A DNA stretch of 64,000 bases from NCBI GenBank assembly GCA_963790305.1, contig CAWBOC010000010.1:288001-352000 (forward strand), read 5' to 3'. Source of the stretch: an uncultured Gemmatimonadaceae bacterium. GTDB lineage: Bacteria > Gemmatimonadota > Gemmatimonadetes > Gemmatimonadales > Gemmatimonadaceae. Of the stretch, positions 2,311-50,372 are shown in pieces. The translations under genes were made by a program, and so were the position numbers. A model generated the notes under the pieces. It searched no databases. It saw only the letters and a program-made list of their open reading frames with translations, and was not told where the DNA came from. Every line of letters starts with the position of its first letter. Position 1 is the stretch's first letter.

Positions 2311-3778
2311 GCCGCGAATCCTCGTCGTCGACGATGACGAGGCACTGCTCAAGACCGTCTCCTGGATTCTCAAGGAGCACGGGTACGACGTCATCGCGGT
2401 GCCCGGGTCGCGCCTGCTCCTCGAGCAGCTGGAGACCTCGGTGCCCGATCTGCTCCTCCTGGACATCATGATGCCGGACCTCGATGGCTTCGAGGTGCTG
2501 GAGCGCATCCGGGGAGACGACCGATGGCGCGATCTTCCCGTCCTCATGATCTCCGCCATGCCTCCCGAGGAGGCCGCGGTGCGCACCCTCGGGCTCGGTG
2601 CTTCCGACTTCGTGCCGAAGCCGTTCCGCGTCCGTGAGCTGCTCGCACGCATTCAGGCGCAGCTTCGCGTGAGTGACACGTTGTCGCGCGCCCGTCAGGA
2701 GCTTCGGCTCACCGAGGTCCAGCTTCAACGCGCTCGCGACGAAGCGGAAAGCCGGCGTCAGCTCGTCGACATCCTGCACGAAGTCACCGGGGACCTCTCG
2801 CCGGACGAGATCTATCACATTCTCGTTCGACGCGTCGCGCGCGCGCTGAATCTGTCCCACTGCTCGCTCGTGTTCGCGCGTCCGGGCGATCTGACGGGCA
2901 CGGTCGCTACCGCGTACGAGAATCCGCAGCTGCGCGACTTCGAGATTCGCCTCGACCGCTATCCCGAGATCCGCACGGCACTCGACCGTGGCGAGCCCGT
3001 CCTCATCGAGGACGTGCTCACGAGCCCGCTCTACGAGGACGTCCGGCGCGATTGGGACCGAAGCGGGACCGTCGTGTCGATTCGATCCGTGATCGCGCTT
3101 CCCTTCCGGGTCGATCGGCAGCTCGCGGGCGTGTTCTTCCTGCGCACGACGCGTCACGAGACTCCGTTGCGACGGGACGACGTCGAGTTCGCCGACGCGG
3201 TCATCAAGGCGGCGGTCGCCGCGATCGAGAAGGCTCGCGTGATCGAGCGGACGAAGGCCGACAAGGCGCGGCTCGAGATGCTCGCGATCACCGACCCACT
3301 CACGCTTACGCTGAACCGGCGTGCGCTCGTCGATCGGCTCGACGAGGAGATGGAGCGTGCGCGCCGCTACGGCCTCGTTCTCACCTTGCTCATGGTCGAT
3401 CTCGACCACTTCAAGCGGGTGAACGACACGCACGGTCACCTCGTCGGGGACGACGTTCTCCGCGACGTCTCCATGATCATCCAGCGCGAGGTGCGCACCG
3501 TCGACATCGTGGCGCGTTACGGGGGCGAGGAGTTCGTCGTTGTCCTACCGGAGACCGCCGAGGAAGGGGCGGTCGCATTCGCTGAGCGCGTTCGTCAGCG
3601 TATCTCGGAGCACCGGATTGCCGGGGAAGACGGCGAGGAGGCATTGAGCCTGACGGTGAGCATCGGCGTGGCGACGTTCCCATCCTCGAGCATCGAGACG
3701 ACGGAGGATCTCATCTCGCACGCGGACGACGCGCTCTATCGCGCGAAGGCCGAGGGGCGGAACAAGGTGCGCGCGTGA
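2288..3778 (+). CDS. Diguanylate cyclase, REC-GAF-GGDEF
   Basis: Receiver domain (ILVVDDD, LLDIMMP, KPF), a GAF-like middle region, TDPLT, DLDHFKRVND, an RTVD I-site and GGEEF. Confidence 0.92.
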   Translation: MTSLAPAKPRILVVDDDEALLKTVSWILKEHGYDVIAVPGSRLLLEQLETSVPDLLLLDIMMPDLDGFEVLERIRGDDRWRDLPVLMISAMPPEEAAVRTLGLGASDFVPKPFRVRELLARIQAQLRVSDTLSRARQELRLTEVQLQRARDEAESRRQLVDILHEVTGDLSPDEIYHILVRRVARALNLSHCSLVFARPGDLTGTVATAYENPQLRDFEIRLDRYPEIRTALDRGEPVLIEDVLTSPLYEDVRRDWDRSGTVVSIRSVIALPFRVDRQLAGVFFLRTTRHETPLRRDDVEFADAVIKAAVAAIEKARVIERTKADKARLEMLAITDPLTLTLNRRALVDRLDEEMERARRYGLVLTLLMVDLDHFKRVNDTHGHLVGDDVLRDVSMIIQREVRTVDIVARYGGEEFVVVLPETAEEGAVAFAERVRQRISEHRIAGEDGEEALSLTVSIGVATFPSSSIETTEDLISHADDALYRAKAEGRNKVRA

Positions 3779-4872
3779 GCATGCGCTGCCCGCGCTGCGG
3801 GACCGTGTACGCCGGCGACGCGCAATTCTGCAAGCGCGATGGCCTGAAGCTCGTGAAGGAGCCGACGACGCCCCCCAACCGGAGTGCGGAGTGGCCGCAG
3901 TATGGTCCTCCATCGAGCGGCGCGCGTGCGGTGCCGACCACGCCGCAGCCCGGTTCCGGACCGCCGTCGCAGGCATCGATGGCGGGGCGCGTGCTCGACG
4001 AGCGCTATCGCATCGAGCGGAAGGTCGGCGAAGGTGGGATGTCGTTCGTCTATCTGGCCCAGGACCTCGAGACGAACGAGCGCGTCGCCATCAAGATTCT
4101 GTCGCCGGCGTTGTCGGCCGATCGCAACTCGCTCGCGCGACTGAAGCGGGAGGCCTCGCTTGCGGGGCGGCTCGCACATCCGAACGTCTGTCACATCATC
4201 CGGTTGGGTGAGACCGACACCGGCATGGTCTACGTGGTCATGCCGTTCGTCGAGGGCGAGCTGCTCTGCGACCGCACGCACCGCCTCGGGCACATTCCGC
4301 TCGCGGAGGTCGTGCCCTTCGTGCGCGACATCGCTGCCGGTCTTCAGGTGGCGCACCAGCTCCGCATCATCCATCGCGATCTCAAGCCCGAGAACGTGAT
4401 GCTGTGCCGCGAGCCGGGCGGCGCCGAGCGTGCGGTGGTCATGGACTTTGGGCTGGCGAAGGATCGCCGCGCGGGTCCGGAGGCCGAGAAGCTCACCGCG
4501 ACCGGGATCGTGTTAGGCACGCCGGAGTTCATGAGCCCCGAGCAGCTGCGCGGGAAGCCGCTCGATCCGCGCACCGACGTCTATTCGCTGGCGCTGATGA
4601 CCTTCGAGATGCTCACCGGCAAGCTCCCGTTCGAGGGCCGGTCGCAGCAGGAGCTGATGCTGGCGCGTCTCCGGAGCGATCCCATCCCGCTGCGAAGGAT
4701 GCGTCCGGATCTCAACTATCCTGCTGACGTCGAGCGCGTGCTGCTGAAGGGGATGGCGAAGGACATGAACGACCGCTTCGCGACGGCGCCCGACTTCGCC
4801 GAGGCGTTCGCGCGAGCTGCCTCCGGCGACGATACCGAGCTCGGGTTTCTGGACCGGCTTTTAGGGAGGTAG
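3775..4872 (+). CDS. Hanks-type Ser/Thr protein kinase with N-terminal zinc-ribbon-like motif
   Basis: CPRCG...FCKRDG, GEGGM, VAIK, HRDLKPEN, DFGLA and GTPEFMSPEQ. Confidence 0.92.
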   Translation: MSMRCPRCGTVYAGDAQFCKRDGLKLVKEPTTPPNRSAEWPQYGPPSSGARAVPTTPQPGSGPPSQASMAGRVLDERYRIERKVGEGGMSFVYLAQDLETNERVAIKILSPALSADRNSLARLKREASLAGRLAHPNVCHIIRLGETDTGMVYVVMPFVEGELLCDRTHRLGHIPLAEVVPFVRDIAAGLQVAHQLRIIHRDLKPENVMLCREPGGAERAVVMDFGLAKDRRAGPEAEKLTATGIVLGTPEFMSPEQLRGKPLDPRTDVYSLALMTFEMLTGKLPFEGRSQQELMLARLRSDPIPLRRMRPDLNYPADVERVLLKGMAKDMNDRFATAPDFAEAFARAASGDDTELGFLDRLLGR

Positions 4873-4967
4873 TCGAGGTCGTCGAGGATGTCGAGGTGAT
4901 CGAGGGAACTACAACCTCGACGACCTCACCTCGATCACCTCGACAACCTCGACATCCTCGACAACCT
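4867..4967. repeat. Hairpin element with TCGAGG-core 9-mer arms
   Basis: AGGTAGTCGAGGTCGTCGAGGATGTCGAGGTGATCGAGG pairs with CCTCGATCACCTCGACAACCTCGACATCCTCGACAACCT; it contains the kinase TAG stop. Confidence 0.85.
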
Positions 4968-5921: not shown

Positions 5922-6047
5922 GCGAATGCGGAATACGGAATGCGGAAGGTGGTAAGACCGTGAAAACGAGAGGGCTCCGGCGAATCGCTCGGAGCCCTCT
6001 GCGTCTTACGGTCTTACCACCTTCCGCATTCCGTATTCCGCATTCGC
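5922..6047. repeat. Hairpin element with (GAATGCG)n arms; probable bidirectional terminator
   Basis: Perfect 40-bp inverted repeat (5922-5961 / 6008-6047) plus an inner AGAGGGCTCC/GGAGCCCTCT stem; lies between convergent genes. Confidence 0.9.
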
Positions 6048-8264: not shown

Positions 8265-9461
8265 ATGATGGTTCTGCTATCGACCCACCGCAAGGCGATT
8301 GTCCACACCCTGTCTGTATGGCTTTTGATGGGTGCCCTCGCGTGCGCCTCACCGCCTGCAGCGCGTGTCGAATCCGCGGCCCCGGCCCCGAGCGGGACGA
8401 CGGGGGCTGCGACCGCGAACTACTGGGTCTACGTGGGCGCGGAATCGGCCGACCTCATCCACCTCGTGCGCTTCGGGCCGGATGGCGCGGTCGTCGAAAA
8501 GACATTCCCCGTGGGGGAATCGGCCTCCGAGCTCGAAGGGCCGCATGGCCTGCAGGTCTCGCGGGACGGGAAGTTTCTCCACCTGACGACGGGACATGGC
8601 TCGCCGGACGGCAAATACTGGCGCTACGTCACCGGCCCCGACACACTCGCCGGTCCCGGAATCTTCCTGGGGTTCTTCCCCGCTTCGATCGATCTCACGC
8701 CGGACGGACTGTACGCCTTCATCGTGAACTTCAATCTGCACGGCGAGATGGTCCCGTCATCGGTATCCGTCGTCTACACGCCGACGCACACTGAGGTCGC
8801 CCGCACGGAAACGTGTACGATGCCGCACGGCAGCCGCGTCGACCCCACTGGGCTGCACCAGTATTCGACCTGCATGATGGATGACCAGCTCGTGGAAGTG
8901 GACACGCGGACCTTCGCGGTGTCACGACGGTACGGCCTGGCCAAGGGGAAGGAAGGACCCATCGCGCACGATGCCGCCACCGCGCACGCGGGTCATGGCG
9001 CCATGACGCCGGCGAGCTGCTCGCCCACGTGGGCGCAACCGTCCGCCGATGGCGCGAAGGTGTACGTGGCCTGCAACAAGGCGGACGAGATCGTCGAGAT
9101 CGACGCCGGCCGGTGGGAGATCACGCGGAGATTTCCGACGGGACGCGGTCCGTACAACCTCGCCGTCACGCCCGACGGCCGACTGCTGATCGCGACACTC
9201 AAGCAGGGAGCGGGAGTGCAGATCTTCGATCTTGCCAGCGGGCAGAGCACCCTCAACACCAAGAGCTCGACCAATGTCACGCACGGGATCGCGGTCTCGC
9301 CGGACTCTCGTTATGCGTTCGTGAGCAACGAGGCCGTCGGCGCCGCGCCGGGCAAGGTGGACGTGTACGATCTGCGCTCGCTCACTCGCGTCGCCGACGT
9401 TCCGGTCGGCCAGCAGGCCGGCGGCATCGCCTTCTGGAAGATGGAGCCCGCCGCGCGCTGA
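8265..9461 (+). CDS. YncE/YVTN-like beta-propeller lipoprotein
   Basis: Lipobox-like ALAC and GPHG/PYNLAVTPDG/HGIAVSPD repeats. Start approximate. Confidence 0.75.
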   Translation: MMVLLSTHRKAIVHTLSVWLLMGALACASPPAARVESAAPAPSGTTGAATANYWVYVGAESADLIHLVRFGPDGAVVEKTFPVGESASELEGPHGLQVSRDGKFLHLTTGHGSPDGKYWRYVTGPDTLAGPGIFLGFFPASIDLTPDGLYAFIVNFNLHGEMVPSSVSVVYTPTHTEVARTETCTMPHGSRVDPTGLHQYSTCMMDDQLVEVDTRTFAVSRRYGLAKGKEGPIAHDAATAHAGHGAMTPASCSPTWAQPSADGAKVYVACNKADEIVEIDAGRWEITRRFPTGRGPYNLAVTPDGRLLIATLKQGAGVQIFDLASGQSTLNTKSSTNVTHGIAVSPDSRYAFVSNEAVGAAPGKVDVYDLRSLTRVADVPVGQQAGGIAFWKMEPAAR

Positions 9462-10627
9462 TGAAGCGTTACCCGGCGTTCGATCCTCCCGAGTACGTCG
9501 CCTGGAAGCGCGACGATCGCGATGTCGAGGATTTCCGGCAGCGCGTGCGTGCCGACCCCGAGCGGGCGGCGATCATCGATCGCCTCACGAAGGACCAGCG
9601 GCTCGATCTCTACCGCGGTCTCGTGCGCACGCGTCTCACCGACATCGCGCTCAAGCGCTGGGTGCGCCAGGGCGTGATCTCGAAGGCCTGGCTGGGCACC
9701 GGTGAGGAGGCGACGACGGTGGGGCCGGTGGCGGCTCTACGGCGAATGCGGAATGCGGAAGGCGGATCAGAGGCATTGAACAGCATGCCGCAATCGCATT
9801 CCGCATTCCGCATTCCGCATTCGGACGTCGTTTCCCCGATGATAAGAAACTCGGGCGCTTGCTCGGAGATGGGCATGCCGGTCGCCGACATCTTTCGCGC
9901 GTACATGGGCACTGCCGACGGGCCAACCCGAGGACGAGACGGGCACTATGGGTCCTTCGCGCACGGCATCATCGCGCCCATCAGCCACGTTGGCGACATG
10001 GTGCCGATCGTCACCGGCATTGCACTCTCGTTCGTGGTCCGCGGCACCGGGCAGGTCGCGATGACGTGGATCGGGGACGGCAGCACCAAGGCAGGGGTGG
10101 CTCACGAAGGCCTCAACTTTGCCGCCGTTCGCCGCGCGCCGGCGATCTTCATCGTCCAGAACAATCAAGTCGCGCTCGGCACTCGCCTCGAGCAGCATCA
10201 CCTGCCGGCGACGACGTCGCGCTTCGCGGATTGGCCGCGCGCGTACGGGATGTGGGGTGGGGAGTTCGACGGCAATAACGTACTCGACGCGTACGCGATC
10301 GCGGCGCTCGCCGTCGAACGCTGCCGCCGTGGGGAGGGGCCGGCGCTCCTGGTCGCGGAGACGTTTCGCATGGGTGGCCACGCCACGCACGACGAGGCTG
10401 AGGCGCGCGAGACGTTCGACGCCGAGCTGTTCGCGAAGTGGGGACGTCGCGATCCCGTGGCGCTGTACGAGGAGTACCTCGTGGACGAGGGCGTCTCGCG
10501 CGCGACGCTCGGCGACATCGAAGCGGAGGTTGAAGCCGAAGTCGAGCGCGCTCAAGAGGAGGCCCTCGAGAGTCGGAAGGAGCGGATGCCGGTCGCGGAG
10601 AGTGCGGTGGAGGGAGTGTATGCCTGA
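9461..10627 (+). CDS. TPP-dependent 2-oxoacid dehydrogenase E1 alpha-like subunit with an in-frame repeat insertion
   Basis: GEEA, GDG...NN TPP motif, DGNN, FRMGGHATHD and RDP. The ATG overlaps the upstream TGA. Confidence 0.88.
   Translation: MKRYPAFDPPEYVAWKRDDRDVEDFRQRVRADPERAAIIDRLTKDQRLDLYRGLVRTRLTDIALKRWVRQGVISKAWLGTGEEATTVGPVAALRRMRNAEGGSEALNSMPQSHSAFRIPHSDVVSPMIRNSGACSEMGMPVADIFRAYMGTADGPTRGRDGHYGSFAHGIIAPISHVGDMVPIVTGIALSFVVRGTGQVAMTWIGDGSTKAGVAHEGLNFAAVRRAPAIFIVQNNQVALGTRLEQHHLPATTSRFADWPRAYGMWGGEFDGNNVLDAYAIAALAVERCRRGEGPALLVAETFRMGGHATHDEAEARETFDAELFAKWGRRDPVALYEEYLVDEGVSRATLGDIEAEVEAEVERAQEEALESRKERMPVAESAVEGVYA
9743..9823. repeat. (GAATGCG)n hairpin element inserted in-frame in E1-alpha
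   Basis: CGAATGCGG...CCGCATTCG, exactly 81 nt and starting on a codon boundary. Confidence 0.85.
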
Positions 10628-11879
10628 CTGCAGGGCGCTAGGGGCGCTAGGGGCGCTAAGGGCGCTGGCGCTCATGGGGGCTCTCGTCGCGTGCGGCGAT
10701 CGCGACGCGGCTCGCACCGACGGCGATACCACCGCGGCCGATACGGTCGGCACGACGTCCAATGTCGCGAGCGGCGCCGTCGTCGCGCTGCAGCTCGCTT
10801 CATATCCCGACACCGCGACTGCGGTCGCGAAACGTGACTCGCTCGATCGGGCAGGGTGGGACGCGTACGTCCGGGTCGCGGACGTCAACGGACGCACGTG
10901 GTACCGCGTGCTCGCGCTGCCATCGTCGGATGCCGCGCTGGCCGAGGCCGCGGCGCATTCGATTCGAGCGGCGCGCGGCAGAGATGCGGTGGTGGTCGTC
11001 CGCGACAGCGGCGCCCCCGTCGAGCCACGCGTGGCGACGCTCGTTCGCGTGAACACCCAGACGCAGGGCATGTTCGCGGTCGCGCGATGGGCGCTGTCTC
11101 AGGATCGCAACGCGATCATCGTGATGGACGACCCGGCGGCCGTCGAGGCCGAGCCCGTACCTAACGGGTTCTTCGTCGGCTCGGAGCGGCCCCTTCGCTA
11201 CGTGCGTCGTGACAGCGTCTGGGATGCCGCGCCGTCACCCGATTGGCGGCGCGTCGCGTTTGGCCGCGCGCACTTTCTCCGAGGCAATCGCGAGGATACC
11301 CTGCCGACCGCCCAGTGGGAGGCGTTTGCCAACCGGATCGGCATGCCGATCGAGGACGTTGTGGCCGGCCGCTTTCACGCCAGCGGGATGGGCGTCGCCT
11401 TTGGCTTTGCCCGGCCCGGTATCGTGGAGCTGGAGACCGGGGCCGACCGGATTTTTCCTGTCGGGTCGGGCTGGCGGGTTCGCTGGACCCGCGATGGCTC
11501 GCGGCTGATCGCCGGCCGCGCCCCAAACTCGGCGCAGGACTTCGCCCAGGCTACGGAGTGGGTGGCGCTCGACCCGCGAACGGGCGCGCCGAGCGGGGAG
11601 GTCCCCCGGGCTCATGAGCTCGCCGACGTGGCCTGGGTGGAAGGGCCGACCATAGATATCTCAGTGCAGCTCGATACGAGCCGCAAGGCCATTCCCATCG
11701 AGGATGGCGGCGTCGAGAGCCGGGGTGGCTGGATCAAGGCGCGTGGGCGCCTGATTGGTCCCGGAATGGTGCTCGCGGCCACGCGAAGCGGCCGATTCAT
11801 CGCGGCGCTCGTCCCCAACCCTGCCGCCAAAGAGTACGAGGCCAAGGAATACCTCGCCGTCTACGTGACGGCGCGCTGA
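10620..11879 (+). CDS. Lipoprotein with SPOR-like domain and beta-propeller-like C-terminus
   Basis: LVAC lipobox and the SPOR pattern LQLASY...AGWDAYV...GRTWYRV. Confidence 0.7.
   Translation: MPDCRALGALGALRALALMGALVACGDRDAARTDGDTTAADTVGTTSNVASGAVVALQLASYPDTATAVAKRDSLDRAGWDAYVRVADVNGRTWYRVLALPSSDAALAEAAAHSIRAARGRDAVVVVRDSGAPVEPRVATLVRVNTQTQGMFAVARWALSQDRNAIIVMDDPAAVEAEPVPNGFFVGSERPLRYVRRDSVWDAAPSPDWRRVAFGRAHFLRGNREDTLPTAQWEAFANRIGMPIEDVVAGRFHASGMGVAFGFARPGIVELETGADRIFPVGSGWRVRWTRDGSRLIAGRAPNSAQDFAQATEWVALDPRTGAPSGEVPRAHELADVAWVEGPTIDISVQLDTSRKAIPIEDGGVESRGGWIKARGRLIGPGMVLAATRSGRFIAALVPNPAAKEYEAKEYLAVYVTAR
10632..10667. repeat. Single-arm (GGGCGCTAR)n 9-mer tract within a signal peptide
   Basis: Four units encode RALGALGALRAL; the unit matches the 20650 and 21841 elements. 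Confidence 0.65.
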
Positions 11880-11898: not shown

Positions 11899-12841
11899 GT
11901 GCGCCGTAGACTCCTCTTAGCCATTCCGCTTCTCGCCGCCGCACCCCTCCAGGCCCAGGGTGTGCTCTCGCGCGCGGATAATTTGCTGCGGGTCGGACGC
12001 ATGTTCGCGGCGGAGACGCTGTACTACTACGCCGTGCGACGCGCACCGCGTGATCCGGAGGCACGCCTTGCCCTCGGTCGCTATCTCGCGGCGCGCGGCG
12101 CCCTTCGCATCGGTGCCGTCCTGATGGAAGAGGCGCGCTACTTCGGCGCCGATCCGAAGAAGGTCGCCGTCTATCTCGCCCCTGTGTACACGCAGCTCGG
12201 TGACTTTCGAGCGCTCGCGGGGCTGCCTAACACTCCGCTTCACAACGCCGAGCGCTCGCGGGCGGAGTGGCTGCGCGCGCATCCGCCCGCTCTGGATGGA
12301 CCCGATTCCGTTTCGATTCACTGGACGCCGTCCGATACCGGCGTGCTCGGAACGGTCGTGCTGCGCATCGGTCAGGCGACCGTGCGCGCGACGCTCGATC
12401 CGCGCGCACATGGCCTCGTGCTCGACACGGCGTGGATGCGGAGCAACGAGACCAAGGTCTTCGCATCCAAGTTCGACAACGACGTGCGCAACGCCGCGGG
12501 GGTGACGCTGGCTGTCTCGCTCGGCGACCTCACCGTGCGCCACGTGCTCACGAGCTTCGCGCCACAGCTCGTCCCCGACCGACGCCGTCATCGGATTGGA
12601 CGTCCTCATGCCACTTGCCCCAACGGTCGATGCCGCCGCTCGGCGCATCGTCCTCCGCAAGGGCGGCCGAGTCGAGCGCGACCTGGCGGGCGAGCGCGTG
12701 CAAACGCTGCTCTTCGGATCGGGGCTCTGGCTGGTGTGGGAACAGTCGATGATCCCGCTCGGCGGCGAGGAGGCGCGACGTCTACTGGCGGGCGGTGCGT
12801 GGACGCTGGATTGGCGAAGAGGGCAGCTGGTGGCGCACTAA
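11899..12841 (+). CDS. Secreted TPR-like plus aspartyl-protease-like-fold protein, split by an apparent +1 frameshift near 12573
   Basis: Removing one C from GTCCCCG joins ORF 11899 to ORF 12596-12841 and gives ...QLVPTDAVIGLDVL...; ATLDP sits where LDTG is expected. Confidence 0.6.
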
Positions 12842-12911
12842 GAGGTGCTCGAGGTGCTCGAGGGAAACTGCAGTCCCCTGGAGCACCTCGAGCACGTTGA
12901 GCACCTCGACT
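12842..12911. repeat. Hairpin element with GCTCGAGGT 9-mer arms between convergent genes
   Basis: GAGGTGCTCGAGGTGCTCGAGGG pairs with GAGCACCTCGAGCACGTTGAGCACCTCGA. Confidence 0.8.
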
Positions 12912-14896: not shown

Positions 14897-15070
14897 GGCG
14901 CGCGTGAGGAGTACCCTTCGGCCATTATGCGCGCCCTGGGTGTACGCGCAAGGCCCAGCTGTCAAATGAGTGATCGTGCGTGAAAGATCGTGCATGCTGA
15001 CGTCACGCACGATGGCGGGTTAGCTTTCGAACTCTCGTTCCATTTTGTATCGCTTTGGAGATTTTGGCAC

Positions 15071-16216
15071 ATGCACATGCTCGTTCTCGGCGCGGGGCTT
15101 CAAGGCTCCGCGTGCGCTTATGATCTGCTTCAAAATCCCGAGGTCACGGAGGTCCGGCTCGCCGACATCCGCATCGAGCATCTCGCCGATTTCCTGGCTC
15201 CGTACTCGGGAAGCCGGCTGATTCCCACCCATCTGGATGTGCGCGATCACGAAGCCGTCCGCGCGCTCATGCGAGAGAGCGACGCCGCCATGAGCGCCAT
15301 CCCCTACTACTTCAATCTCGATCTCGCCCGCCTGGCTGCTGAAACGGGCACGCACTTCTGCGATCTCGGCGGCAATACGGAGATCGTCTTTCAGCAGAAG
15401 CGACTCGAGGCGAGGGCGCGGGAAAGCGGGTGCACGATCGTCCCCGATTGCGGTGTGGCGCCGGGGATGGTGAACGTCCTCGCGCAGTATGGCATCGAGA
15501 AGCTCGACAAGGTGAAGTCGGTGAAGATCTACGTCGGGGGCCTCCCACAGCATCCCGAGCCCCCGCTCAACTATCAGATCGTGTATTCCCTCGAGGGCGT
15601 GCTCGACTACTACACGACGCTGTCATGGGTGGTACGCGACGGAAAACGCACCCAGGTGAAGGCACTGTCCGAGCGCGAGAAGGTGTCGTTTGCGCAGCCA
15701 GTCGGTGAGCTGGAGGCGTTTCACACCGCGGGCGGCCTCTCGACGATGGCGTTCCGGTACGAGGGAAAGATTCCCACGATGGAGTACAAGACGCTGCGCT
15801 ATCCGGGTCACGCGCACATCATGGAGGCGATTCGCGATCTCGGTCTGCTCGACCTGGCGCCGGTCGACGTGAAGGGAGTGAAGGTCGTGCCGCGCGACCT
15901 GTTCGTGAACGTGGTCGGTCCGCGTCTCACCAAGCCGACCGGTCGCGACCTGGTCGCCCTCCGCGTGATCGTGGAAGGGACGAAGGACGGCAAGGCCAAG
16001 CGCGTCGGGTGGGAGCTGCTCGATTTCTACGATGAGGCCCGCGGCATCAGCGCGATGATGCGCACGACGGGATTCTCACTCTCGATTACCGGCCAGATGC
16101 AGGTGCGCGGCGAGATCACGCCGCCCGGTGTGTGGACGCCTGACGAGTGCGTGCCCGCCGCCCGGTATGTTGCGGAGCTGGAGCGGCGAGGAGTGCATGT
16201 GCGTGAGGTGAGTTAG
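15071..16216 (+). CDS. Saccharopine dehydrogenase / lysine 6-dehydrogenase family
   Basis: LGAGLQG, DLGGN, DCGVAPG, YKTLRYPGH and AMMRTTG. Confidence 0.88.
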   Translation: MHMLVLGAGLQGSACAYDLLQNPEVTEVRLADIRIEHLADFLAPYSGSRLIPTHLDVRDHEAVRALMRESDAAMSAIPYYFNLDLARLAAETGTHFCDLGGNTEIVFQQKRLEARARESGCTIVPDCGVAPGMVNVLAQYGIEKLDKVKSVKIYVGGLPQHPEPPLNYQIVYSLEGVLDYYTTLSWVVRDGKRTQVKALSEREKVSFAQPVGELEAFHTAGGLSTMAFRYEGKIPTMEYKTLRYPGHAHIMEAIRDLGLLDLAPVDVKGVKVVPRDLFVNVVGPRLTKPTGRDLVALRVIVEGTKDGKAKRVGWELLDFYDEARGISAMMRTTGFSLSITGQMQVRGEITPPGVWTPDECVPAARYVAELERRGVHVREVS

Positions 16217-16357
16217 GGGTCAGGGGTCAGGAGTCAGGGGTCAGGGGTGGAAAGGCGGCGCGGCTTCGCCGCTGCCGCCTCATTCTGATGAGCAAACGGC
16301 AGCGCTGTTGCGCTGCCGTTTGCCTTTCCACCCCTGACCCCTGACTCCTGACCCCTA
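16214..16357. mobile_element. TA-bounded (TCAGGRG)n-armed element with branched core, copy A
   Basis: TAGGG...CCCTA ends, 4 and 3 heptamer units, and a three-hairpin core containing CTCATTCTGATGAG. Mobility is inferred. Confidence 0.7.
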
Positions 16358-18055
16358 GTCTCTTACCCACGACGCGAGCGTCGCGCCCATGGCGTCGATC
16401 GTCTCCTTCGCCTTGTTCAGATCGCCGCCGTTGTAGATGAAGGCGAATCCGAGCACCTCGCCGCTCTCCGCGGTCACGTAGCCGCCGAGCGAGATCACGG
16501 TATTGGTGGTCCCGGTCTTCGCGTGCAGGTTGCCCTGCGCGGGCGTGAGACGCATCCGGTGTCGCAGCAGCTCCGACTCACCTGCTACCGGCAGCGAGGT
16601 GTGGAAGACGTCCGACCATGGGGCGCGGTGCGAGTAGTCGAGCAGCTGAATCAGCGCACGCGGAGTGACGCGATCGAGGACTGACAGGCCGCTGCCGTCC
16701 GCCGCGTATACCGATCCGGGCGCGGCGCCCACCTTCTGCGTCATGAAGCGCTGAAGGAGACTATTGCCGCTTTCCACCGTCCCCGGGCCTCCGTTCGACG
16801 AGCGCGCTGCATTGCGGAAGATCAGCTCGGCGTAATGGTTCACGCTCTCGCGATTCATCACCGAGAGGAGCCGCGCGAGCGGCGGCGATGGGAGCGAGGC
16901 GACCACGGCGGCCGTGTCCGACGTTTCCCCGAGACGCGTCTGGCCGGCGATCGTAATGCCCTGCGTTTCGAGCGCGCGACGGAAGGCGCCAGCCGTGAAC
17001 CTCGCGGGATCCTCCACGACGATCTGGTACCGGCGCGTTCCCGCGCGGGCACCGATCCAGCCGCGCACCTCGATGGTCCCGTCGTCCAGCGTGCGAACGA
17101 TCACGCGCGCGGCGCGGCTGCCCGCGACGGTGCGCACCTTGTTGGCGAGCGGGAGCTCGGTCGCAGGATCGAGAACGACTTGCGCCGGCTGCTTGGAGCT
17201 CGCGCCAGGCTGCACGACGATCCAGAGCAGGTTCTCGTTGAGCGAGAGCGCCGAGACGCGGGCGGCGTACCCCGCATGCAGGTAGCGGCGCTGCCATCCA
17301 TCTGGGATGCGACGCTGATCGAAGGCGCTTGCGTCGGCGATGAGATCGCCCGACACCCGCTTGATGCCCTTCGACGCCACCAGTTGCGCGAGGAGCTCGA
17401 CTGGCGCCGCCGGACCACCCTGAAGGAATCGGCTGGAGAGCGCGGGATCTCCGTCCCCCCGCATGACGAGATTGCCCTCGAGCGTCCCGTCCGGGGTCAC
17501 GACGCCATCGCGAAGCACGTCCGTGCTGAACTGGTGGTCGGGCCCGAACTGCTCGAGCGCCAGCGCCGCCGTGAACAGCTTCATGTTGGACGCCGGCGAC
17601 AGCAGCAGGTCGGGGTTCACCGAGTACAGCGTGTCTCCGCGCGTGAGCGACACGACCATCACGCCCCAGCGGCCGTTGCGAACGCGGGCCCCCAGCATGG
17701 TCCCGAGGTCCGAGGAGAGGGCAAGCGCGCCCTTGGGCGTCGTGTGGCGAAGTGGCGGAGTCGCGGGCCGCCGCACACGTCGGACACGCCGGCGCGACCG
17801 CTGACGCCCTCGCTGCTGCGGCGGGTCGACGGACCGCACGGCCGGCGGGGACGCCGGCGCAGCGGGAGCCGCGACGCCGTCGCCTTCCTGAGCAGGAAGC
17901 GCGATCGCCGTGCTCTCGAGCGCAATAACGAGCAGCACCCAGCGGGAAGCCAGGATGCGATGACGTGCAGATCGAAGCAGGCTCATGAGGCTACCAAAGG
18001 CAACTCGCATTCCACGCCGGCCGTTAAGAGCCAACGCTTTGCGAATCAATGACAT
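16355..18055 (-). CDS. dacB: D-alanyl-D-alanine carboxypeptidase/endopeptidase (PBP4, peptidase S13)
   Basis: PASNMK (SxxK), SVN (SxN), DGSGLS and AKTGT. The start may instead be 17986. Confidence 0.92.
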   Translation of the reverse strand: MSLIRKALALNGRRGMRVAFGSLMSLLRSARHRILASRWVLLVIALESTAIALPAQEGDGVAAPAAPASPPAVRSVDPPQQRGRQRSRRRVRRVRRPATPPLRHTTPKGALALSSDLGTMLGARVRNGRWGVMVVSLTRGDTLYSVNPDLLLSPASNMKLFTAALALEQFGPDHQFSTDVLRDGVVTPDGTLEGNLVMRGDGDPALSSRFLQGGPAAPVELLAQLVASKGIKRVSGDLIADASAFDQRRIPDGWQRRYLHAGYAARVSALSLNENLLWIVVQPGASSKQPAQVVLDPATELPLANKVRTVAGSRAARVIVRTLDDGTIEVRGWIGARAGTRRYQIVVEDPARFTAGAFRRALETQGITIAGQTRLGETSDTAAVVASLPSPPLARLLSVMNRESVNHYAELIFRNAARSSNGGPGTVESGNSLLQRFMTQKVGAAPGSVYAADGSGLSVLDRVTPRALIQLLDYSHRAPWSDVFHTSLPVAGESELLRHRMRLTPAQGNLHAKTGTTNTVISLGGYVTAESGEVLGFAFIYNGGDLNKAKETIDAMGATLASWVRD

Positions 18056-18129: not shown

Positions 18130-18222
18130 CGGATGCGGAAAACGGAATGCGGACCTTTTTGTTCGGAGTCTCTTCGTACGAACGCTTTTACCACAATTCC
18201 GAATTCCGCGTTCCGTATTCGC
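18130..18222. repeat. Degenerate (GAATGCG)n hairpin element
   Basis: CGGATGCGGAAAACGGAATGCGGA pairs with TTCCGAATTCCGCGTTCCGTATTCG. Confidence 0.65.
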
Positions 18223-18228
18223 GGGCGC

Positions 18229-19443
18229 TCAGACCTTCAGAAAGACTCTCTTCCGGTAGAGTACCGCCAGGATCCCAAACCACAGCAGGACGAAACACAC
18301 CGCATACAGCAACGACGCGTTCATCGGCGCCAGCCAGCTCGCGAACGTCGAGTCGTAGGTCGCGCGCTGAAGCGAGACGCTCTGGCCGTCGCGCTCGACC
18401 TTGATGATCGAGCCCATGAGCCGCGCCATCATCCCGGACCCGACGAACGCGAGAATCGGGTTCATGCCGAAGACCACGAACGGCTTCGTCCATCCGGTGA
18501 TTCGCTGGACATCAATGAGCCAAATGCACGTGGCGATCGTGACACACGCCATCCCGGCCGTGAAGAGCACGTACGAGCTGGTCCACAGATTCTTGTTGAT
18601 CGGGAACCACCAGCTCCAGATCAGGCCTGCAACCATCCCGATCGCGCCGATCGCGAACAGCGCGGCGAGGCGCTCCATCAATGGTCTCGGCGACGCAATC
18701 CATCGCCCGGCGAAGACGCCGAGCATCGCGGTGCCGATGGCCGGCAGGGTGGAAAGAATTCCCTCGGGGTCCCACGTCTTCGAGACGCGCCAGAGGTGGG
18801 TGCCGAGCAGCGTGCGATCGAGCCAGGCGGCGATCGAGCCATCCGGTGTGGCGAGCGCGACAGCTCCGAGTGCACCAGTTCCGGGAACGGGGATCAGCGT
18901 CATCACCGCCCAGTACCCCAGCAGCAGCGTCGCCACGATCACCACCTGGGTTCGCGTGCTCGTGCGGAGCGTGAGCAGTCCGGCGGCGATGTATGCGACG
19001 CCGATGCGCTGGAGCACTCCAGGGAAGCGCATCGTCGCCGGGTCGAATCCGTATTGCGGGATGAAGGGGAATCCGGACAGGAGCAGACCGAGCAGAATGA
19101 TGATCCCGCCTCGGCGCAGCACCTGCCTGACGAGCATCCCCTCGTCGTCACCGCGCGTGCGACGGGCGGCCAGCGAGAGGTGCGTGGTGATGCCGACAAT
19201 GAAGAGAAAGAACGGGAAGATGAGATCGGTTGGCGTCCACCCGTGCCACGCCGCGTGCCGCAGCGGTGGGTAGATCGCGCCCCACGTCCCGGGATTGTTG
19301 ACGAGCAGCATTCCCGCGATCGTGAGACCACGAAAGACGTCGAGGGCGACCAGGCGCTCGCGTTGCGCGGGCGGAGTCGTCACCGATGCGTCGTACGCCG
19401 CCGGGGCGGTCGCGCCCGTACGCGGCGGCGCCTCCGACCTCAC
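18229..19443 (-). CDS. Heparan-alpha-glucosaminide N-acetyltransferase-like membrane acyltransferase
   Basis: [38 protein letters not shown] and PINKNLWT. Confidence 0.9.
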
Positions 19444-19943
19444 GACTGCCGCTCCTCCTCGGCGCGGGCGACGTTCCAGCGGGCGGTGTCGCAGACGAAC
19501 TGCACGGCGCGGTGCGCGACCGTGCCCTTGGGCGATCCGCTCAGAAAGTAGCCGCCGAGCCTAACGATGGCGCGGTCGTCGCCGGCGCGGGCGACGCCAC
19601 GGTAGGTGACGAGCAAGGTCGGCATGTCTCCGTAGTCCTCGGCGATAGAATCCAGACGCGCCAGAACGCGCCGCCGCAACGTCGTGTCGGCGGGGAAGAC
19701 GTACGTCGGACCGTAGTTCTGCAGACGCGCTTCCGCTCGACTCGGCAGGGCGGAATCGGTGCCCGACGCGATGAGGAATCGCCGGGGCTTGGGTGCGACG
19801 CTCTTGACGTACACATCGACCGCCGGCGCCACGAGCGCCGTGGTCGGGTCGGCACAGGGTCCGAGGAACCGTGCGTTATCGCGCGGCTCCTGTTTGCAGG
19901 CGGTGAGGAGGAGGGCGAGAGCGAGAAGCCGAGGAGTCGTCAT
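19440..19943 (-). CDS. Hypothetical lipoprotein
   Basis: LTAC lipobox; its stop overlaps the next start. Confidence 0.7.
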   Translation of the reverse strand: MTTPRLLALALLLTACKQEPRDNARFLGPCADPTTALVAPAVDVYVKSVAPKPRRFLIASGTDSALPSRAEARLQNYGPTYVFPADTTLRRRVLARLDSIAEDYGDMPTLLVTYRGVARAGDDRAIVRLGGYFLSGSPKGTVAHRAVQFVCDTARWNVARAEEERQS

Positions 19944-20007: not shown

Positions 20008-20832
20008 CTACCTTGCCTCCTCGACCTTCGCCCACCGGAAGAACATCACCGTCGCCACGCCGATCAGGATGAAGGTGCCCGGGATCCACATGATCAGACC
20101 GCCCACCAGCTGATCTTCGTGCGGCGAGAGCGCCACGATACGTGGCGCGGCCTCGTAGGCGGGATACAGCACTTCATCGGCGTATGTGATCATGAGCCCG
20201 ATCACGTTCATCGGAATCATCAGCAGCAGCACGTACAGCAACCGCATCGCGTGCGAGAGTCGCGGCAGCTCGGGGAGTGGGCTCAGCAGTGGCCACCACA
20301 CCAGCGTTGCCGTCACGAGAAAGAACAGGTGCTGCACGATGTGCACGCCGTGGTGGGCCATCGCCAGGTTGTAGAGCGGCGGAAGGTGCCACGCCAGCAT
20401 GGTGACGTTGAACAGCGCGTAGGCGAGAGCGGGGCGGGTGAGCGCGCGTGCGACGCGCGCGATCGTCGGGGATCGAAGCGCGGGGCGAAGCATCCAGCCC
20501 GGCGTTCCGACGATGAGCAGCGGAACCACGATCATGGTGAGCAGAAGGTGCTGCACCATGTGCGCGGAGAAGAGATAGCTGTCGCTCAGGTCGTGAAGCG
20601 GTCCGTTGAGCGAGAGGAAGAGGAGGGCGAGGCCGGCGAAGAAAGACGAAGGCGCTAAAGGCGCTAGAGGCGCTAAAGGCGCCAGAGGGTCTTCGCCTTT
20701 AGCGCCTCTAGCGCTTCTAGCGCTTCTAGCGCCTCTGACGTAGAGCAGCCCCAGCGCGCCAATCCCGACCACCGTGCTCCAGTGGATGCTGAATCGCGCG
20801 AGATCGAGCGGCGCGTCGGGGTGCAGCAGCAA
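20008..20832 (-). CDS. ctaG: caa3-type cytochrome c oxidase assembly factor, with repeat-derived loop
   Basis: LFSAHMVQHLLL, WHLP and DQLVGGLIMWIPG; at the end of the cta operon. Confidence 0.9.
   Translation of the reverse strand: MLLHPDAPLDLARFSIHWSTVVGIGALGLLYVRGARSARSARGAKGEDPLAPLAPLAPLAPSSFFAGLALLFLSLNGPLHDLSDSYLFSAHMVQHLLLTMIVVPLLIVGTPGWMLRPALRSPTIARVARALTRPALAYALFNVTMLAWHLPPLYNLAMAHHGVHIVQHLFFLVTATLVWWPLLSPLPELPRLSHAMRLLYVLLLMIPMNVIGLMITYADEVLYPAYEAAPRIVALSPHEDQLVGGLIMWIPGTFILIGVATVMFFRWAKVEEAR
20650..20734. repeat. (GGCGCTARA)n hairpin element in-frame within ctaG
   Basis: Four units per arm, encoding GARSARSARGAKGEDPLAPLAPLAPLAP. Confidence 0.85.
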
Positions 20833-21840: not shown

Positions 21841-21938
21841 CTAAAGGGCGCTAGAGGCGCTAGAGGCGCTAGAGGCGCTAAAGGGAGGGGGCATTCAGCG
21901 CCCAGCGCCTTTAGCGCCTCTAGCGCTTTTAGCGCTAG
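21841..21938. repeat. (GGCGCTARA)n hairpin element filling the ctaD-ctaE gap
   Basis: About 4 units per arm; the ctaD TAG stop lies in the outer unit. Confidence 0.85.
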
Positions 21939-25230: not shown

Positions 25231-25338
25231 CAGGAGTCAGTGGTCAGGAGTCAGGAGTCAGGGAAATTCCACGTCGAGTTTCTTGCTCAATCGCTTGGAA
25301 TTTCCCTCACTCCTGATCCCGGACTCCTGACTCCTCAT
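25231..25338. repeat. (TCAGGAG)n hairpin element with a different core
   Basis: Heptamer arms and an inner GGGAAATTCCA/TGGAATTTCCC stem; overlaps the 3' end of the 25307 gene. Confidence 0.8.
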
Positions 25339-25707: not shown

Positions 25708-25806
25708 CGAATGCGGAATTCGGAATACGGATTCAGGAACGCTACGCGGCTTTCCCGAGAGTGGCTTTCCGGCGTCACGGACTCCGCGTTCCGTATTCCG
25801 CGTTCG
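25708..25806. repeat. (GAATGCG)n hairpin element
   Basis: CGAATGCGGAATTCGGAATACGGA pairs with TCCGCGTTCCGTATTCCGCGTTCG. Confidence 0.8.
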
Positions 25807-25810
25807 AGCC

Positions 25811-26875
25811 CTACTTCACCTTCTCGAGCCTCTTGTTCGGCCGAAACTCACGACCGACCTTCGCCTCGGGCTTTCCTTCTACGAGGACGATGTCAGCGGT
25901 GAAGTCGAAACGGCCGGCGAAGAGCGAGGATCCCACGCCGTAGGCATCCACCGGTACCAGCTGCTCTTCGAAGAATCGGATCTTCTCGGAGGTGAAGCCG
26001 CCGGACACGACGATCTTCACATGACCGAAGCCTTCGGTGTCGAGCGCGTTCCGGACGTTCCACACCAGGTGCGGATTGACCCCCGTCGGCCGGAAGGAGC
26101 CCATCACCGGAATGATCGACTTGTCGACCAGGTTCTCCGACGTGTCGATCCGCACACCCCAGAGGCGGTCGCCGAGGCCCCGCGCGATCTCCAGGCTGGT
26201 CGCCACACAATCGTTGTCATAATCAACGAGCGTGATGATCTGCACTTCGGGATCCATGTACTCGGCGAACTTCTGCGTCGCGAGCGTCGTGTCGCCGTGG
26301 TAGGCGGCGATGAGCGCGTGCGGGACCGTACCAATGCCTGACGAGCCCCACCAGCTGGCCTGCGCGTCGGTGGACACCCCAATGGCACCGGCGATGTGCG
26401 CCGCGTACCCGTCGCCCGTCTGCACCAGCCAGTGATCGTGACGCGCGGGAAAGAACATGACCTGCTTCGGACGCGCCGCCTCGACCACCGCCCGCACGTT
26501 GGTCCCGACGCGCGTCCGGCGCGCGAGAACGCCCAGGTAGAGCGTCTCGAGATGCGCGAAAGCATCATACGGGCCTTCGATCAGCATCACCGTCTCCCAG
26601 GGCTCGATGCGGTCGCCGTCGTACAGGGCAAGCACGTCGAGGGCGCTCCAGTCGTCGGCGCACAGCTTGAGAATGGCGATCGCCTCGTCCATTCCACCGA
26701 GAAACGCCTGGGACTTGCCGAAGACCTGCATCGTCACCCTCGGCGAATGACTGTCCGCGCGCAGGATTTCTCGTGCGCGAACGAAATATTTGTCGGAGTA
26801 GTAGCCCTGCCGCATCTTGTCGACCGGCAGGTTGAACACGGCGGGGTCGAGCCGCTTGCGTCGTCGTGGGGGCAT
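25811..26875 (-). CDS. pncB: Nicotinate phosphoribosyltransferase (type II PRTase, NadC-like fold)
   Basis: YYSDKYF, GTVPHALI, LVDYDND, GVRIDTS, IVVSGG and DAYGVGS. The ORF-track N-terminal extension is repeat-derived. Confidence 0.78.
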   Translation of the reverse strand: MPPRRRKRLDPAVFNLPVDKMRQGYYSDKYFVRAREILRADSHSPRVTMQVFGKSQAFLGGMDEAIAILKLCADDWSALDVLALYDGDRIEPWETVMLIEGPYDAFAHLETLYLGVLARRTRVGTNVRAVVEAARPKQVMFFPARHDHWLVQTGDGYAAHIAGAIGVSTDAQASWWGSSGIGTVPHALIAAYHGDTTLATQKFAEYMDPEVQIITLVDYDNDCVATSLEIARGLGDRLWGVRIDTSENLVDKSIIPVMGSFRPTGVNPHLVWNVRNALDTEGFGHVKIVVSGGFTSEKIRFFEEQLVPVDAYGVGSSLFAGRFDFTADIVLVEGKPEAKVGREFRPNKRLEKVK

Positions 26876-26911
26876 GGACTTTAGAGAAAGAAATGCGCTG
26901 CGGCGCGGTAC

Positions 26912-26975
26912 CGAATGCGGAATGCGGAATGCGGTGGCCTCAATTCCATAATCCGCATTCCGCATTCCGCATTCG
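26912..26975. repeat. (GAATGCG)n hairpin element
   Basis: CGAATGCGGAATGCGGAATGCGG pairs perfectly with CCGCATTCCGCATTCCGCATTCG. Confidence 0.88.
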
Positions 26976-26977
26976 AG

Positions 26978-30172: not shown

Positions 30173-30181
30173 CGACGTGCG

Positions 30182-32107: not shown

Positions 32108-32267
32108 TAGGGATCAGGGGTCAGGAGTCAGGGGTCAGGGAAGGAAAGGGGCCGCCGCGCTGCGCGCGTGCGGCCCCTCATCAGAATGAGCGCGGCAGCT
32201 TCGCTGCCGCGCCGTTCCATCCCTGATCCCTGACCCCTGACTCCTGACCCCTGACTCCTGACCCCTA
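32108..32267. mobile_element. TA-bounded (TCAGGRG)n-armed element with branched core, copy B (core inverted)
   Basis: TAGGG...CCCTA ends, 4 and 6 units, and core CTCATCAGAATGAG; lies between divergent genes. Confidence 0.7.
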
Positions 32268-47222: not shown

Positions 47223-47367
47223 GGATCAGGAGTCAGGAGTCAGGGGTCAGGGGTGGAATGCGGCGCGGCTTCGCCGCAGCCGCGTCATCAGATGAGCAAA
47301 CGGCCGCGCAGTGCGCGGCCGTTTGCCTTTCCACCCCTGACCCCTGACTCCTGACTCCTGATCCCTA
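47220..47367. mobile_element. TA-bounded (TCAGGRG)n-armed element with branched core, copy C
   Basis: Perfect 39-bp arms from TAGGGA to TGGAA; the core is closely similar to copy A. Confidence 0.7.
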
Positions 47368-50262: not shown

Positions 50263-50372
50263 CCAACTGCTTGACCACAGAGGCACAGAGGGCACGGAGG
50301 ACGGCCAACTGCAAGGACCCTTGCAGTTGGCCGTCCTCCGTGCCCTCTGTGCCTCTGTGGTCAAGCAGTTGG
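50263..50372. repeat. Perfect 110-bp palindrome with CACAGAGG-type units
   Basis: 54-bp arms (50263-50316 / 50319-50372) with no mismatch. Confidence 0.92.

Follow-up and report, generated by a model that had tools for sequence, protein, structure and literature searches.

The window analyzed here is a stretch of 64,000 nucleotides from the genome of an uncultured Gemmatimonadaceae bacterium. It contains an E1-alpha gene (alpha subunit of a thiamine pyrophosphate-dependent 2-oxo acid dehydrogenase) that carries, in frame, an 81-nt palindrome with tandem-repeat arms, referred to here as the hairpin cassette (Table 1). A first-pass annotation of the window had read this palindrome as a copy of an intergenic repeat family that had invaded a surface loop and created new protein sequence. 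On the evidence presented below, that interpretation is right in kind and wrong in history: the site is a long-occupied and repeatedly rewritten address that behaves as a swappable cassette, and not a recent private insertion.

Anatomy of the hairpin cassette

The sequence, coordinates, frame, and peptide given for positions 9743 to 9823 by the first-pass annotation all held. Position 9743 is codon position 1 of the E1-alpha open reading frame (ORF), and the 81 nt encode 27 residues between ...PVAALR and DVVSPMIRN. The two arms (9743 to 9766 and 9800 to 9823; 24 nt each, 96% complementary) each repeat the 7-nt unit GAATGCG in a short tandem array and begin CGAATGCGG. Folded as RNA, the cassette reaches -48.2 kcal/mol (z score, -7.86), which none of 200 dinucleotide shuffles equaled; as DNA, it reaches -33 kcal/mol (z score, -8.01). 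The 18-nt arm motif has 17 matches in the window at three or fewer mismatches, against 0.13 expected and a maximum of 2 in 100 shuffles. The element is open in four of the six frames; hairpins of the GGGTCAG class (see below) have stops in nearly all frames. No Rfam family matched anywhere in the window at gathering thresholds. A promoter/terminator consensus scan of positions 9000 to 11000 had no match, and there is no T-run behind the E1-alpha hairpin.

An intact and constrained host gene

The E1-alpha ORF matches Pfam family PF00676 (E1_dh; E value, 1.9e-47; 162.1 bits, cut-off 22) over residues 112 to 373 only, because the insert interrupts the N-terminal part, and a phmmer search against PDB matched the solved chain 1um9_A (2.5e-38). 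The residues G205, D206, G207, N234, and N235 are invariant across 40 aligned sequences and form the thiamine-diphosphate motif GDG...NN. A structure model, one of the checks proposed with the first-pass annotation, gave an E1-alpha fold with the insert as a low-confidence loop. The AlphaFold2 model (mean predicted local distance difference test [pLDDT] score, 72; predicted template modeling [TM] score, 0.80) aligned in Foldseek with 1umb, 1x7z, 3exe, and 1w85 at TM scores of 0.65 to 0.76; helix 83-100 extends into the first insert residues, and residues 102 to 118 have pLDDT values below 50.

For comparative analyses we used 80 related loci (L numbers), annotated as Gemmatimonadaceae, and related database proteins (P numbers). 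The window's own contig lies outside the set of loci, the best of which is 89% identical. Over 360 flanking codons, the ratio of nonsynonymous to synonymous divergence (dN/dS) was 0.05 to 0.14 in 11 of 11 pairs, at synonymous divergences (dS) of 0.63 to 0.89 between the window gene and its syntenic relatives. Given the Pfam and PDB matches, the invariant GDG...NN residues, the fold, and the low dN/dS, the gene is, as far as sequence can tell, functional and constrained in the lineages that carry the insert. A pseudogene, for which the first-pass annotation had allowed, is not what was found.

Loop length in related E1-alpha proteins

For 75 of the 80 related loci, the loop could be parsed, with the conserved ...AL and xxPMIRN as its limits. 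It has 10 or fewer residues in 42 of these (6 residues in 13 loci, 8 in 19, 9 in 9, and 10 in 1), 12 to 19 residues in 22, and 22 to 48 residues in 11; the window loop has 30. Solved E1-alpha structures have a short loop at the cassette position, and the alignment with the solved Thermus chain begins just ahead of the Asp that closes the loop. The first-pass statement that E1-alpha proteins are normally short-looped here was therefore correct and, with short loops in 42 of the 75 loci parsed, the comparison indicates that the loop was ancestrally short and that DNA was gained at this position.

The size of the gain differs from that originally proposed, i.e., an insertion of exactly 27 codons. 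The palindrome does span 27 codons, but the net gain is 22 to 25. Short-loop proteins nested in the long-loop clade described below read RR-S-DI or RP-S-DI (P0063 and P0076); relative to these, the window gene has gained 25 codons, and relative to the loops of 6 to 8 residues found in remoter relatives, 22 to 24 codons. The outer CGA (Arg) and TCG (Ser) codons of the palindrome may be host sequence, because the RR-S-DI relatives carry the same Arg and Ser.

Loops of intermediate length (12 to 19 residues; L009-L013, L016, L017, L021, L022, L024, L025, L028, L031, L037, L040, L047, L057-L059, L063, L065, and L073) are rich in Ala, Gly, Pro, and Arg. Five that were tested had no hairpin potential (z scores near 0). 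Such loops may be what is left of older, decayed insertions, or they may have expanded independently. Locus L055 has a 40-residue loop that is not a hairpin.

Other hairpin classes at the same site in relatives

A protein tree was prepared from 140 rows with the loop columns removed (quick IQ-TREE run, LG+G4, supported by Shimodaira-Hasegawa-like approximate likelihood ratio tests only; 41 of 133 inner branches unresolved). It contained a fully supported clade of 90 rows, of which 84, including P0042, have loops of at least 22 residues. The exceptions (P0063, P0076, P0073, P0078, P0081, and P0082) are scattered among long-loop rows and are therefore read as secondary losses. A fresh invasion by the GAATGCG family, as first proposed, does not agree with 84 of 90 rows being long-looped at the same codon position, with other unit classes there.

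In all nine syntenic sequences examined as DNA, the loop is a hairpin with tandem-repeat arms, and at least five other unit sequences occur. The arm units are GATTGCG/GACTGCG in L007, CTGCGAG/CTGCGAA in L003 and L004, CCGAGGA in L026, ATGAGGA/GTGAGGA in L005 and L006, and decayed GAATGCG in L001 and L002, where the hairpins are decaying (-30 and -23 kcal/mol, respectively). Loop peptides of a 9-mer type are present among database E1-alpha proteins. The cassettes of the window and of 10 of the 11 long-loop loci folded better than shuffled sequences (z scores, -1.6 to -9.0), while L055 (-0.4) and five of five shorter loops (-0.5 to +0.6) did not. When the arms were compared in a fixed register, on average 14.1 of 21 positions of an arm agreed with its own partner in reverse complement, and 5.9 of 21 agreed with the arms of other genomes, which is about chance. 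The variable region is sharply bounded in the DNA alignment, and in the window and all 10 hairpin-bearing loci the cassette is in frame and free of stops; in L005 and L006, the arm is broken exactly where a perfect unit array would give an in-frame TGA. The first-pass annotation had foreseen orthologues with loops of similar length lacking the repeat, and this was half borne out: loops of similar length exist, but they are other repeats of the same architecture.

The position of the hairpin in E1-alpha is thus conserved. Two loci of a distant lineage (L030 and L060; units of TGGGGAG type) also have a hairpin at this site; because they fall outside the 90-row clade, the site has probably been occupied at least twice.

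Cassette turnover between near-identical proteins

Cassettes of different class occur in proteins that are otherwise nearly the same. Between P0033 and the L006 protein there are 3 residue differences outside the loop, and their loops of 33 and 30 residues are unrelated; between P0039 and P0061 there is 1 such difference, and their loops of 24 and 29 residues are likewise unrelated. Two (clusters 4 and 7) of ten 90%-identity clusters inspected hold two cassette classes. Smaller changes were also seen in such clusters, i.e., one arm expanded by 7 residues (21 nt, three units; 32 versus 39 residues) in one cluster and a shortened cassette interior in one cluster. Among the loci, L006 and L007 (dS, 0.25) have different classes, while L003 and L004 (dS, 0.22) have one class with different arm lengths. 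The class at the E1-alpha site therefore turns over fast and, to judge from the tree as read, the two pairwise comparisons, and the cluster members, classes do not appear to be clade specific. Eight 51-residue members of one cluster were unrelated to E1-alpha and were excluded.

Several database fragments start or stop within the loop, and thus contigs and gene calls tend to break at the hairpin. Many cluster members among the database proteins P0134-P0170 are 247 to 262 residues long and begin just past the loop.

Hairpin population of the window and its relatives

The window contains 15 hairpins with tandem-unit arms, belonging to at least six classes (Table 1). Ten overlap a stop codon or sit within 7 nt of one, one follows a stop at a distance of 112 nt, two are flanked by divergent starts, and two lie in frame in genes. 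Most of the hairpins are thus located at stop codons; no T-run was present behind the window hairpins where this was checked. In a strict scan of the window and the 80 loci, the long-loop clade had 33 hairpins in 195.5 kb, L030 and L060 had 1 in 25.9 kb, and the 70 other loci had 21 in 1,070 kb (16.9 hairpins per 100 kb in the long-loop clade versus 2.0 in the 70 other loci); shuffled sequence had none.

The five GAATGCG-class copies share their arms only. Their interiors are unrelated, and one holds an extra 40-bp stem. Because the copies share arms and not interiors, they do not form a conventional whole-element repeat family. The proposal that an intergenic family had invaded the loop is hence retained in part: the arm motif is indeed present at four intergenic hairpins of the window, but what these share with the cassette is the arms.

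Class agreement within genomes

Synteny of the window with L001-L007 and L026 is complete. At junctions J1-J4 and at the E1-alpha site, a hairpin is retained across the syntenic loci, and its class changes between genomes. Behind the Big_2 gene, for example, the class is GAATGCG in the window, GGGTCAG in L002 and L004, GGGGCCA in L005, a 9-mer in L006 and L007, and CCGAGGA in L026. Within a genome, the classes at separate sites tend to coincide. Junctions J2b and J3 have one common class in each of L004, L005, L006, and L007 (four of five genomes), and this class differs between genomes. L026 has CCGAGGA both in the E1-alpha gene and at J2b, and the class of the L004 gene cassette recurs at two other junctions. 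The 12-mers of the window cassette had matches at 38 other positions of the window but at no more than 3 positions in any one of the 80 loci, and those of the L004 cassette had 35 matches within L004 and at most 13 elsewhere.

To quantify the agreement, two hairpins were counted as sharing sequence at 20% or more of 9-mers, with about 20 kb available per relative. Over all hairpins, sharing was found for 19 of 101 pairs from the same site in different genomes, 10 of 80 pairs from different sites in the same genome, and 22 of 560 pairs with neither in common. For E1-alpha, only 1 of 36 pairs of orthologous cassettes shared sequence. Comparison of the E1-alpha cassettes with other sites of their own genome gave sharing in 4 of 30 pairs (4 of 9 genomes); comparison with other sites in foreign genomes gave sharing in 10 of 240. 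These numbers are small and suggest that E1-alpha cassettes match the hairpins of their own genome beyond those of other genomes.

The mobility of the family, which the first-pass annotation had supposed, is accordingly supported in the form of turnover, by unrelated cassettes in near-identical proteins and by own-genome matches; the insertion itself supports it less.

Table 1. Coordinates of the E1-alpha gene, its cassette, and the other tandem-unit hairpins of the window
Feature	Position	Strand	Remarks
E1-alpha gene (TPP-dependent 2-oxo acid dehydrogenase alpha subunit)	9461..10627	+	388 codons; identified by Pfam, PDB, Foldseek, dN/dS
Hairpin cassette	9743..9823	+	81 nt, in frame, codons 95-121; tandem GAATGCG arms, unique interior
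Whole variable loop	9740..9829	+	30 codons between conserved ...AL and VSPMIRN; 5-48 codons in relatives
GAATGCG/GAATACG hairpin	5922..6047		58-nt arms, 91% complementary; between convergent stops of Zn-peptidase and Big_2 genes
Degenerate GAATGCG-class hairpin	18130..18221		7 nt downstream of stop of ORF 18229-19560(-)
GAATGCG-class hairpin	25708..25806		4 nt downstream of stop of ORF 25811-26977(-)
GAATGCG-class hairpin	26912..26975		23-nt arms, 100% complementary; 2 nt downstream of stop of kinase gene 26978-30181(-)
GGGTCAG/GAGTCAG-arm hairpin	16208..16370		Overlaps both stops of convergent genes
Other GGGTCAG/GAGTCAG-class hairpins	25232-25335, 32109-32259, 47220-47367		
9-mer-arm hairpin	4867..4967		Overlaps stop of kinase gene 3586-4872(+)
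Other hairpins whose arms repeat with a period of 8 or 9	932-1060, 12842-12907, 21848-21935, 50263-50372		
Second in-frame hairpin	20652..20734	-	Tandem 9-mer arms (GCGCTAGAG type), within CtaG, ~20011-20832

Genomic context and further hairpin sites

The E1-alpha gene lies between genes for a YNCE-like beta-propeller and a SPOR-domain protein. The E1-alpha ATG shares bases with the TGA of the YNCE-like gene upstream (TGATG; 9459 to 9463), which suggests translational coupling of the two. An adjacent E1-beta partner gene is usual for E1-alpha and is not defining. No transketolase-like E1-beta was detected among the 53 window ORFs scanned, and there is no E1-beta or E2 gene near E1-alpha.

Two of the hairpins (21848-21935 and 25232-25335) stand between genes of the cytochrome c oxidase cluster (between COX1 and COX3 and upstream of COX2, respectively) in an apparent operon, an arrangement that recalls repetitive extragenic palindromic (REP) elements setting differential mRNA stability. 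The 9-mer-arm hairpin at 12842-12907 encodes the last ~19 codons of ORF 11899-12900; relatives match only residues 21 to 226 of this ORF, and its real 3' end is therefore uncertain. A further array, of GAGGAAC units and one-armed or weakly paired, lies at 1236-1269, ~10 nt upstream of a pyridoxal phosphate (PLP)-dependent enzyme ORF. It has counterparts in L002 (1879-1905), L004 (1737-1769), L005 (1716-1747), and L026 (1944-1968), i.e., one class in five genomes, and its unit contains the Shine-Dalgarno-like GAGGA.

Other in-frame hairpins

The second in-frame hairpin of the window lies in the gene of the cytochrome oxidase assembly protein CtaG (Pfam Caa3_CtaG match, 9.9e-59), and thus the E1-alpha case is not unique even within the window. 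Over 30 nt, the arms of this hairpin are 93% complementary, and the insert falls in the loop that joins the first hydrophobic segment of CtaG to the second; the first segment is conserved upstream of the insert in all 60 relatives displayed. CtaG relatives of 81 to 89% identity have different repeat-like peptides at the insert, and insert-free relatives are also found (the 263-residue group P0205-P0213, one of which is from the contig of L026).

An automatic scan for hairpins in long ORFs flagged 11 cases; it missed CtaG because it required 60 flanking codons. Three of the 11 were the E1-alpha site itself. We rejected the cases in L041, L063, and L065 as GC-rich low-complexity matches, that in L049 as lying in an implausible antisense ORF, and that in L016 as lying upstream of the real start. 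Two leads came from the related loci. In L010, a GAGATTC-unit hairpin (12772-12881) lies in frame within one ORF of 613 codons, with a part resembling Glu/Leu dehydrogenase on one side of it and a cyclase-like part on the other; either a hairpin has mediated a gene fusion or a stop is missing. Another hairpin of this class (14911-15017) lies 2 kb from the first. Hairpins of GTGCGTC/GTACGCC units occupy one syntenic position in three Gemmatimonadales genomes (L064, 16103-16182; L075, 16144-16230; L066, 16189-16275). In L064 and L075, this hairpin is in frame in a metallophosphoesterase-like ORF of 437 and 438 codons, respectively, just upstream of an RRQFL motif resembling a twin-arginine translocation (Tat) signal.

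Proposed explanation and alternatives

We consider that the 81-nt element belongs to an exchangeable, REP-like population of tandem-heptamer hairpins and that this one member is translated as disordered filler in an E1-alpha loop, just as another is tolerated and translated in a loop of CtaG, and we assign this explanation a probability of roughly 0.6. The population would be dense and genome-wide in Gemmatimonadaceae. Its members would have outer arms in which units of 7 nt (sometimes 9 nt) form short tandem arrays, would have interiors specific to each locus, and would mostly sit directly behind stop codons, where they probably serve as REP-like hairpins at RNA 3' ends. The E1-alpha member would occupy a length-tolerant surface loop and survive there because the unit is stop-free in the frame used, the element has a length divisible by three, and disorder is possible in the loop. 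The site would have been occupied throughout a large clade, with the cassette often replaced wholesale by others whose arm classes are present at other hairpins of the same genome. Since the replacements resemble hairpins of their own genome, a genome-wide exchange or homogenizing process would also be acting inside the gene.

Slippage is a known process, as is template switching from arm to arm at quasipalindromes. The two would account for the perfection of the arms, and within one cassette the arms would grow and shrink by whole multiples of units; they do not account for agreement between loci. Class agreement between loci would therefore need ectopic templated repair or an element-moving enzyme, and the exchange might proceed by ectopic templated repair or template switching between hairpins, or by excision and insertion by an enzyme. 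A stronger version of the proposal, namely, an active, undescribed mechanism of Gemmatimonadaceae that rewrites cassettes at fixed addresses by copying whole tandem-heptamer palindromes between sites of one genome faster than amino acids are substituted, editing the E1-alpha and CtaG loops in frame, is possible, although we think it rather doubtful.

Several points weigh against the exchangeable-population explanation. No transposase, REP-associated tyrosine transposase (RAYT), or other candidate enzyme was found in a Pfam scan of the 53 window ORFs, and the mechanism is at present conjecture. The own-genome match comes from small samples (4 of 30 versus 10 of 240 pairs), and five of the nine genomes have no own-genome match to their E1-alpha cassette. 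The near-identical backbones with different cassettes are mostly metagenome assembled, so that chimeric joins are possible from protein data alone. The hairpins of L001 and L002 are decaying, and thus cassette renewal is not universal. Selection for a function could just as well be the reason that 84 of the 90 clade rows have retained a hairpin. Finally, translation of the cassette loop is inferred.

One alternative is a single ancient insertion that has evolved in place, with slippage spreading variants, intrastrand template switching copying one arm to the other, and no exchange between loci. The 21-nt change in arm length within a 90% cluster, one-base unit variants mixed within one arm, unit classes that lie one to three bases apart, and the retention of one class by L003 and L004 at a dS of 0.22 are all as this explanation would have them. 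Stepwise drift, however, would hardly change class, interior, and length together while leaving 1 to 3 differences outside the loop, nor would it make cassettes match other hairpin sites of their own genome or give J2b and J3 a common class within four of five genomes and different classes between genomes. We consider evolution in place unlikely. We would place at the same low level the idea that the hairpin is kept for a function, whether as an RNA structure inside the gene that adjusts how the E1-alpha message is translated or degraded or as a deliberately variable protein loop. A stable hairpin is present at this codon position across dS values of 0.6 to 0.9 and in 84 of 90 clade rows, its structure is conserved while its sequence is not, and the separate lineage of L030 and L060 also has a hairpin at the site. 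Nevertheless, natural short-loop variants are nested in the clade (P0063, P0076, P0073, P0078, and P0081/82), the L001 and L002 hairpins are decaying, the loop is modeled as disordered, and E1-alpha has no export signal and hence no obvious agent for diversifying selection on a surface loop. Intergenic hairpins likewise keep their position and change their class, so that a gene-specific function is unnecessary.

The cassettes might instead be old alleles of one polymorphic site that homologous recombination has shuffled between strains or species. The scatter of classes over the protein tree is consistent with this, as is the conservation of the flanks, which would suffice for recombination. 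However, it explains neither the recurrence of a cassette class at other loci of the same genome nor the joint change of class at unrelated intergenic junctions, and, with only 0 to 3 flanking differences left, the ends of imported tracts would have to coincide exactly with the edges of the loop. We consider shuffled alleles improbable, and an artifact or dead gene (a misassembled palindrome, a pseudogene, or a segment skipped by the ribosome) far more so. Palindromes do break assemblies, and several database fragments end or start in the loop; however, the cassette is in frame and stop-free in the window and in 10 hairpin-bearing loci from independent assemblies, the same layout recurs in more than 80 independent database proteins, and dN/dS is 0.05 to 0.14. 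A bypassed segment would need neither frame nor freedom from stops, and yet the stop-prone arms of L005 and L006 are interrupted exactly at the would-be in-frame TGA. In view of the in-frame, stop-free hairpins and the dN/dS values, we have rejected pseudogene, assembly artifact, and translational bypass, which are largely refuted.

Comparison with known systems

A search of open-licence papers in PubMed Central and bioRxiv turned up no description of such elements in Gemmatimonadetes or Gemmatimonas, which does not imply their absence from print. Several known systems resemble the hairpins in part, the nearest being the palindromic elements of Rickettsia and the inverted heptamers of Xanthomonas. 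The heptamer repeats of Xanthomonas (GGGAATC) and Nostoc are the closest in anatomy. As described in the accessible part of that study, they consist of tandem 7-nt units, often in two convergent arrays capable of forming a stem-loop, with 70 to 75 cases per genome; most lie <50 bp from a stop, 83% have the same gene context in a sister species, and 7 to 11% are intragenic (Rehm et al. 2015, PMC4692102). The convergent 7-nt arrays, the location near stops, and the shared context across relatives are all features of the present hairpins. The Xanthomonas and Nostoc repeats, however, follow one G-rich consensus (GGGANTN) that is discussed there as a G-quadruplex former, whereas here there are many unrelated unit classes per genome, GAATGCG has no G-tract, and the GGGTCAG and GGGGCCA classes alone resemble that consensus. 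The same part of PMC4692102 does not report a mid-domain, in-frame case with class turnover.

REP/REPIN sequences are dense, short extragenic palindromes, often in hairpin-forming inverted doublets, that are vertically inherited, differ in class between related strains, and undergo a class replacement termed "orthoswitch," according to the portions available of PMC3686654, PMC3116915, and PMC3733652. The present hairpins are like them in density, location at gene 3' ends (15 hairpins in 64 kb, ten of them at stops), and replacement of classes. REPs are 20 to 40 bp long with GTAG or CGTC at one end (PMC3733652), and in the same partial sources a cognate RAYT defines the system. The five GAATGCG-class copies have tandem-unit arms instead and no GTAG or CGTC tag, and the available portion of PMC3686654 describes no comparable in-frame REP. 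A cognate RAYT (Y1 transposase) was not found among the 53 ORFs of the 64-kb window, which covers only part of the genome. [quoted passage not shown] Short tandemly repeated repetitive (STRR) heptamers were reportedly described by Vioque in 1997 inside the RNase P RNA gene of heterocystous cyanobacteria; there, too, tandem heptamers are tolerated in a functional, conserved gene, with the difference that the host gene encodes an RNA.

The Rickettsia palindromic elements (RPEs), which the first-pass annotation had cited as a precedent, are inserted in frame in unrelated housekeeping genes and translated as an extra, fold-compatible peptide, while other copies are intergenic; they are ~150 bp long and form whole-element families that encode a conserved peptide (as summarized in the consulted portion of PMC10969869, citing Ogata et al. 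2000). In-frame residence in protein-coding genes, here E1-alpha and CtaG, is what the two have in common. The Gemmatimonadaceae copies, from another phylum, share only arms of 7- or 9-nt units and have unrelated interiors; because they share neither a whole-element sequence nor a conserved peptide, they fall outside the RPE family. Replacement of one cassette by another between near-identical hosts is not reported for RPEs in that portion of PMC10969869.

The hairpins described here would amount to a dense, apparently undescribed hairpin-repeat system in an abundant soil phylum, stable in position and not in sequence, which raises the question of which enzyme or repair route exchanges the hairpins. 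They have a practical consequence for Gemmatimonadota metagenomes, in that they break assemblies and split gene calls and 90%-identity protein clusters. Orthologous empty, filled, and differently filled sites coexist, and gain, loss, and replacement can be read directly from them. Should the stronger, active version of the proposal be true, it would represent a naturally occurring form of templated cassette exchange, different from the transposition of REP/RAYT systems, from the movement of MITEs, and from diversity-generating retroelements. The E1-alpha and CtaG cassettes would in any case provide a second and phylogenetically remote example, beside Rickettsia, of repeat DNA residing within protein-coding genes.

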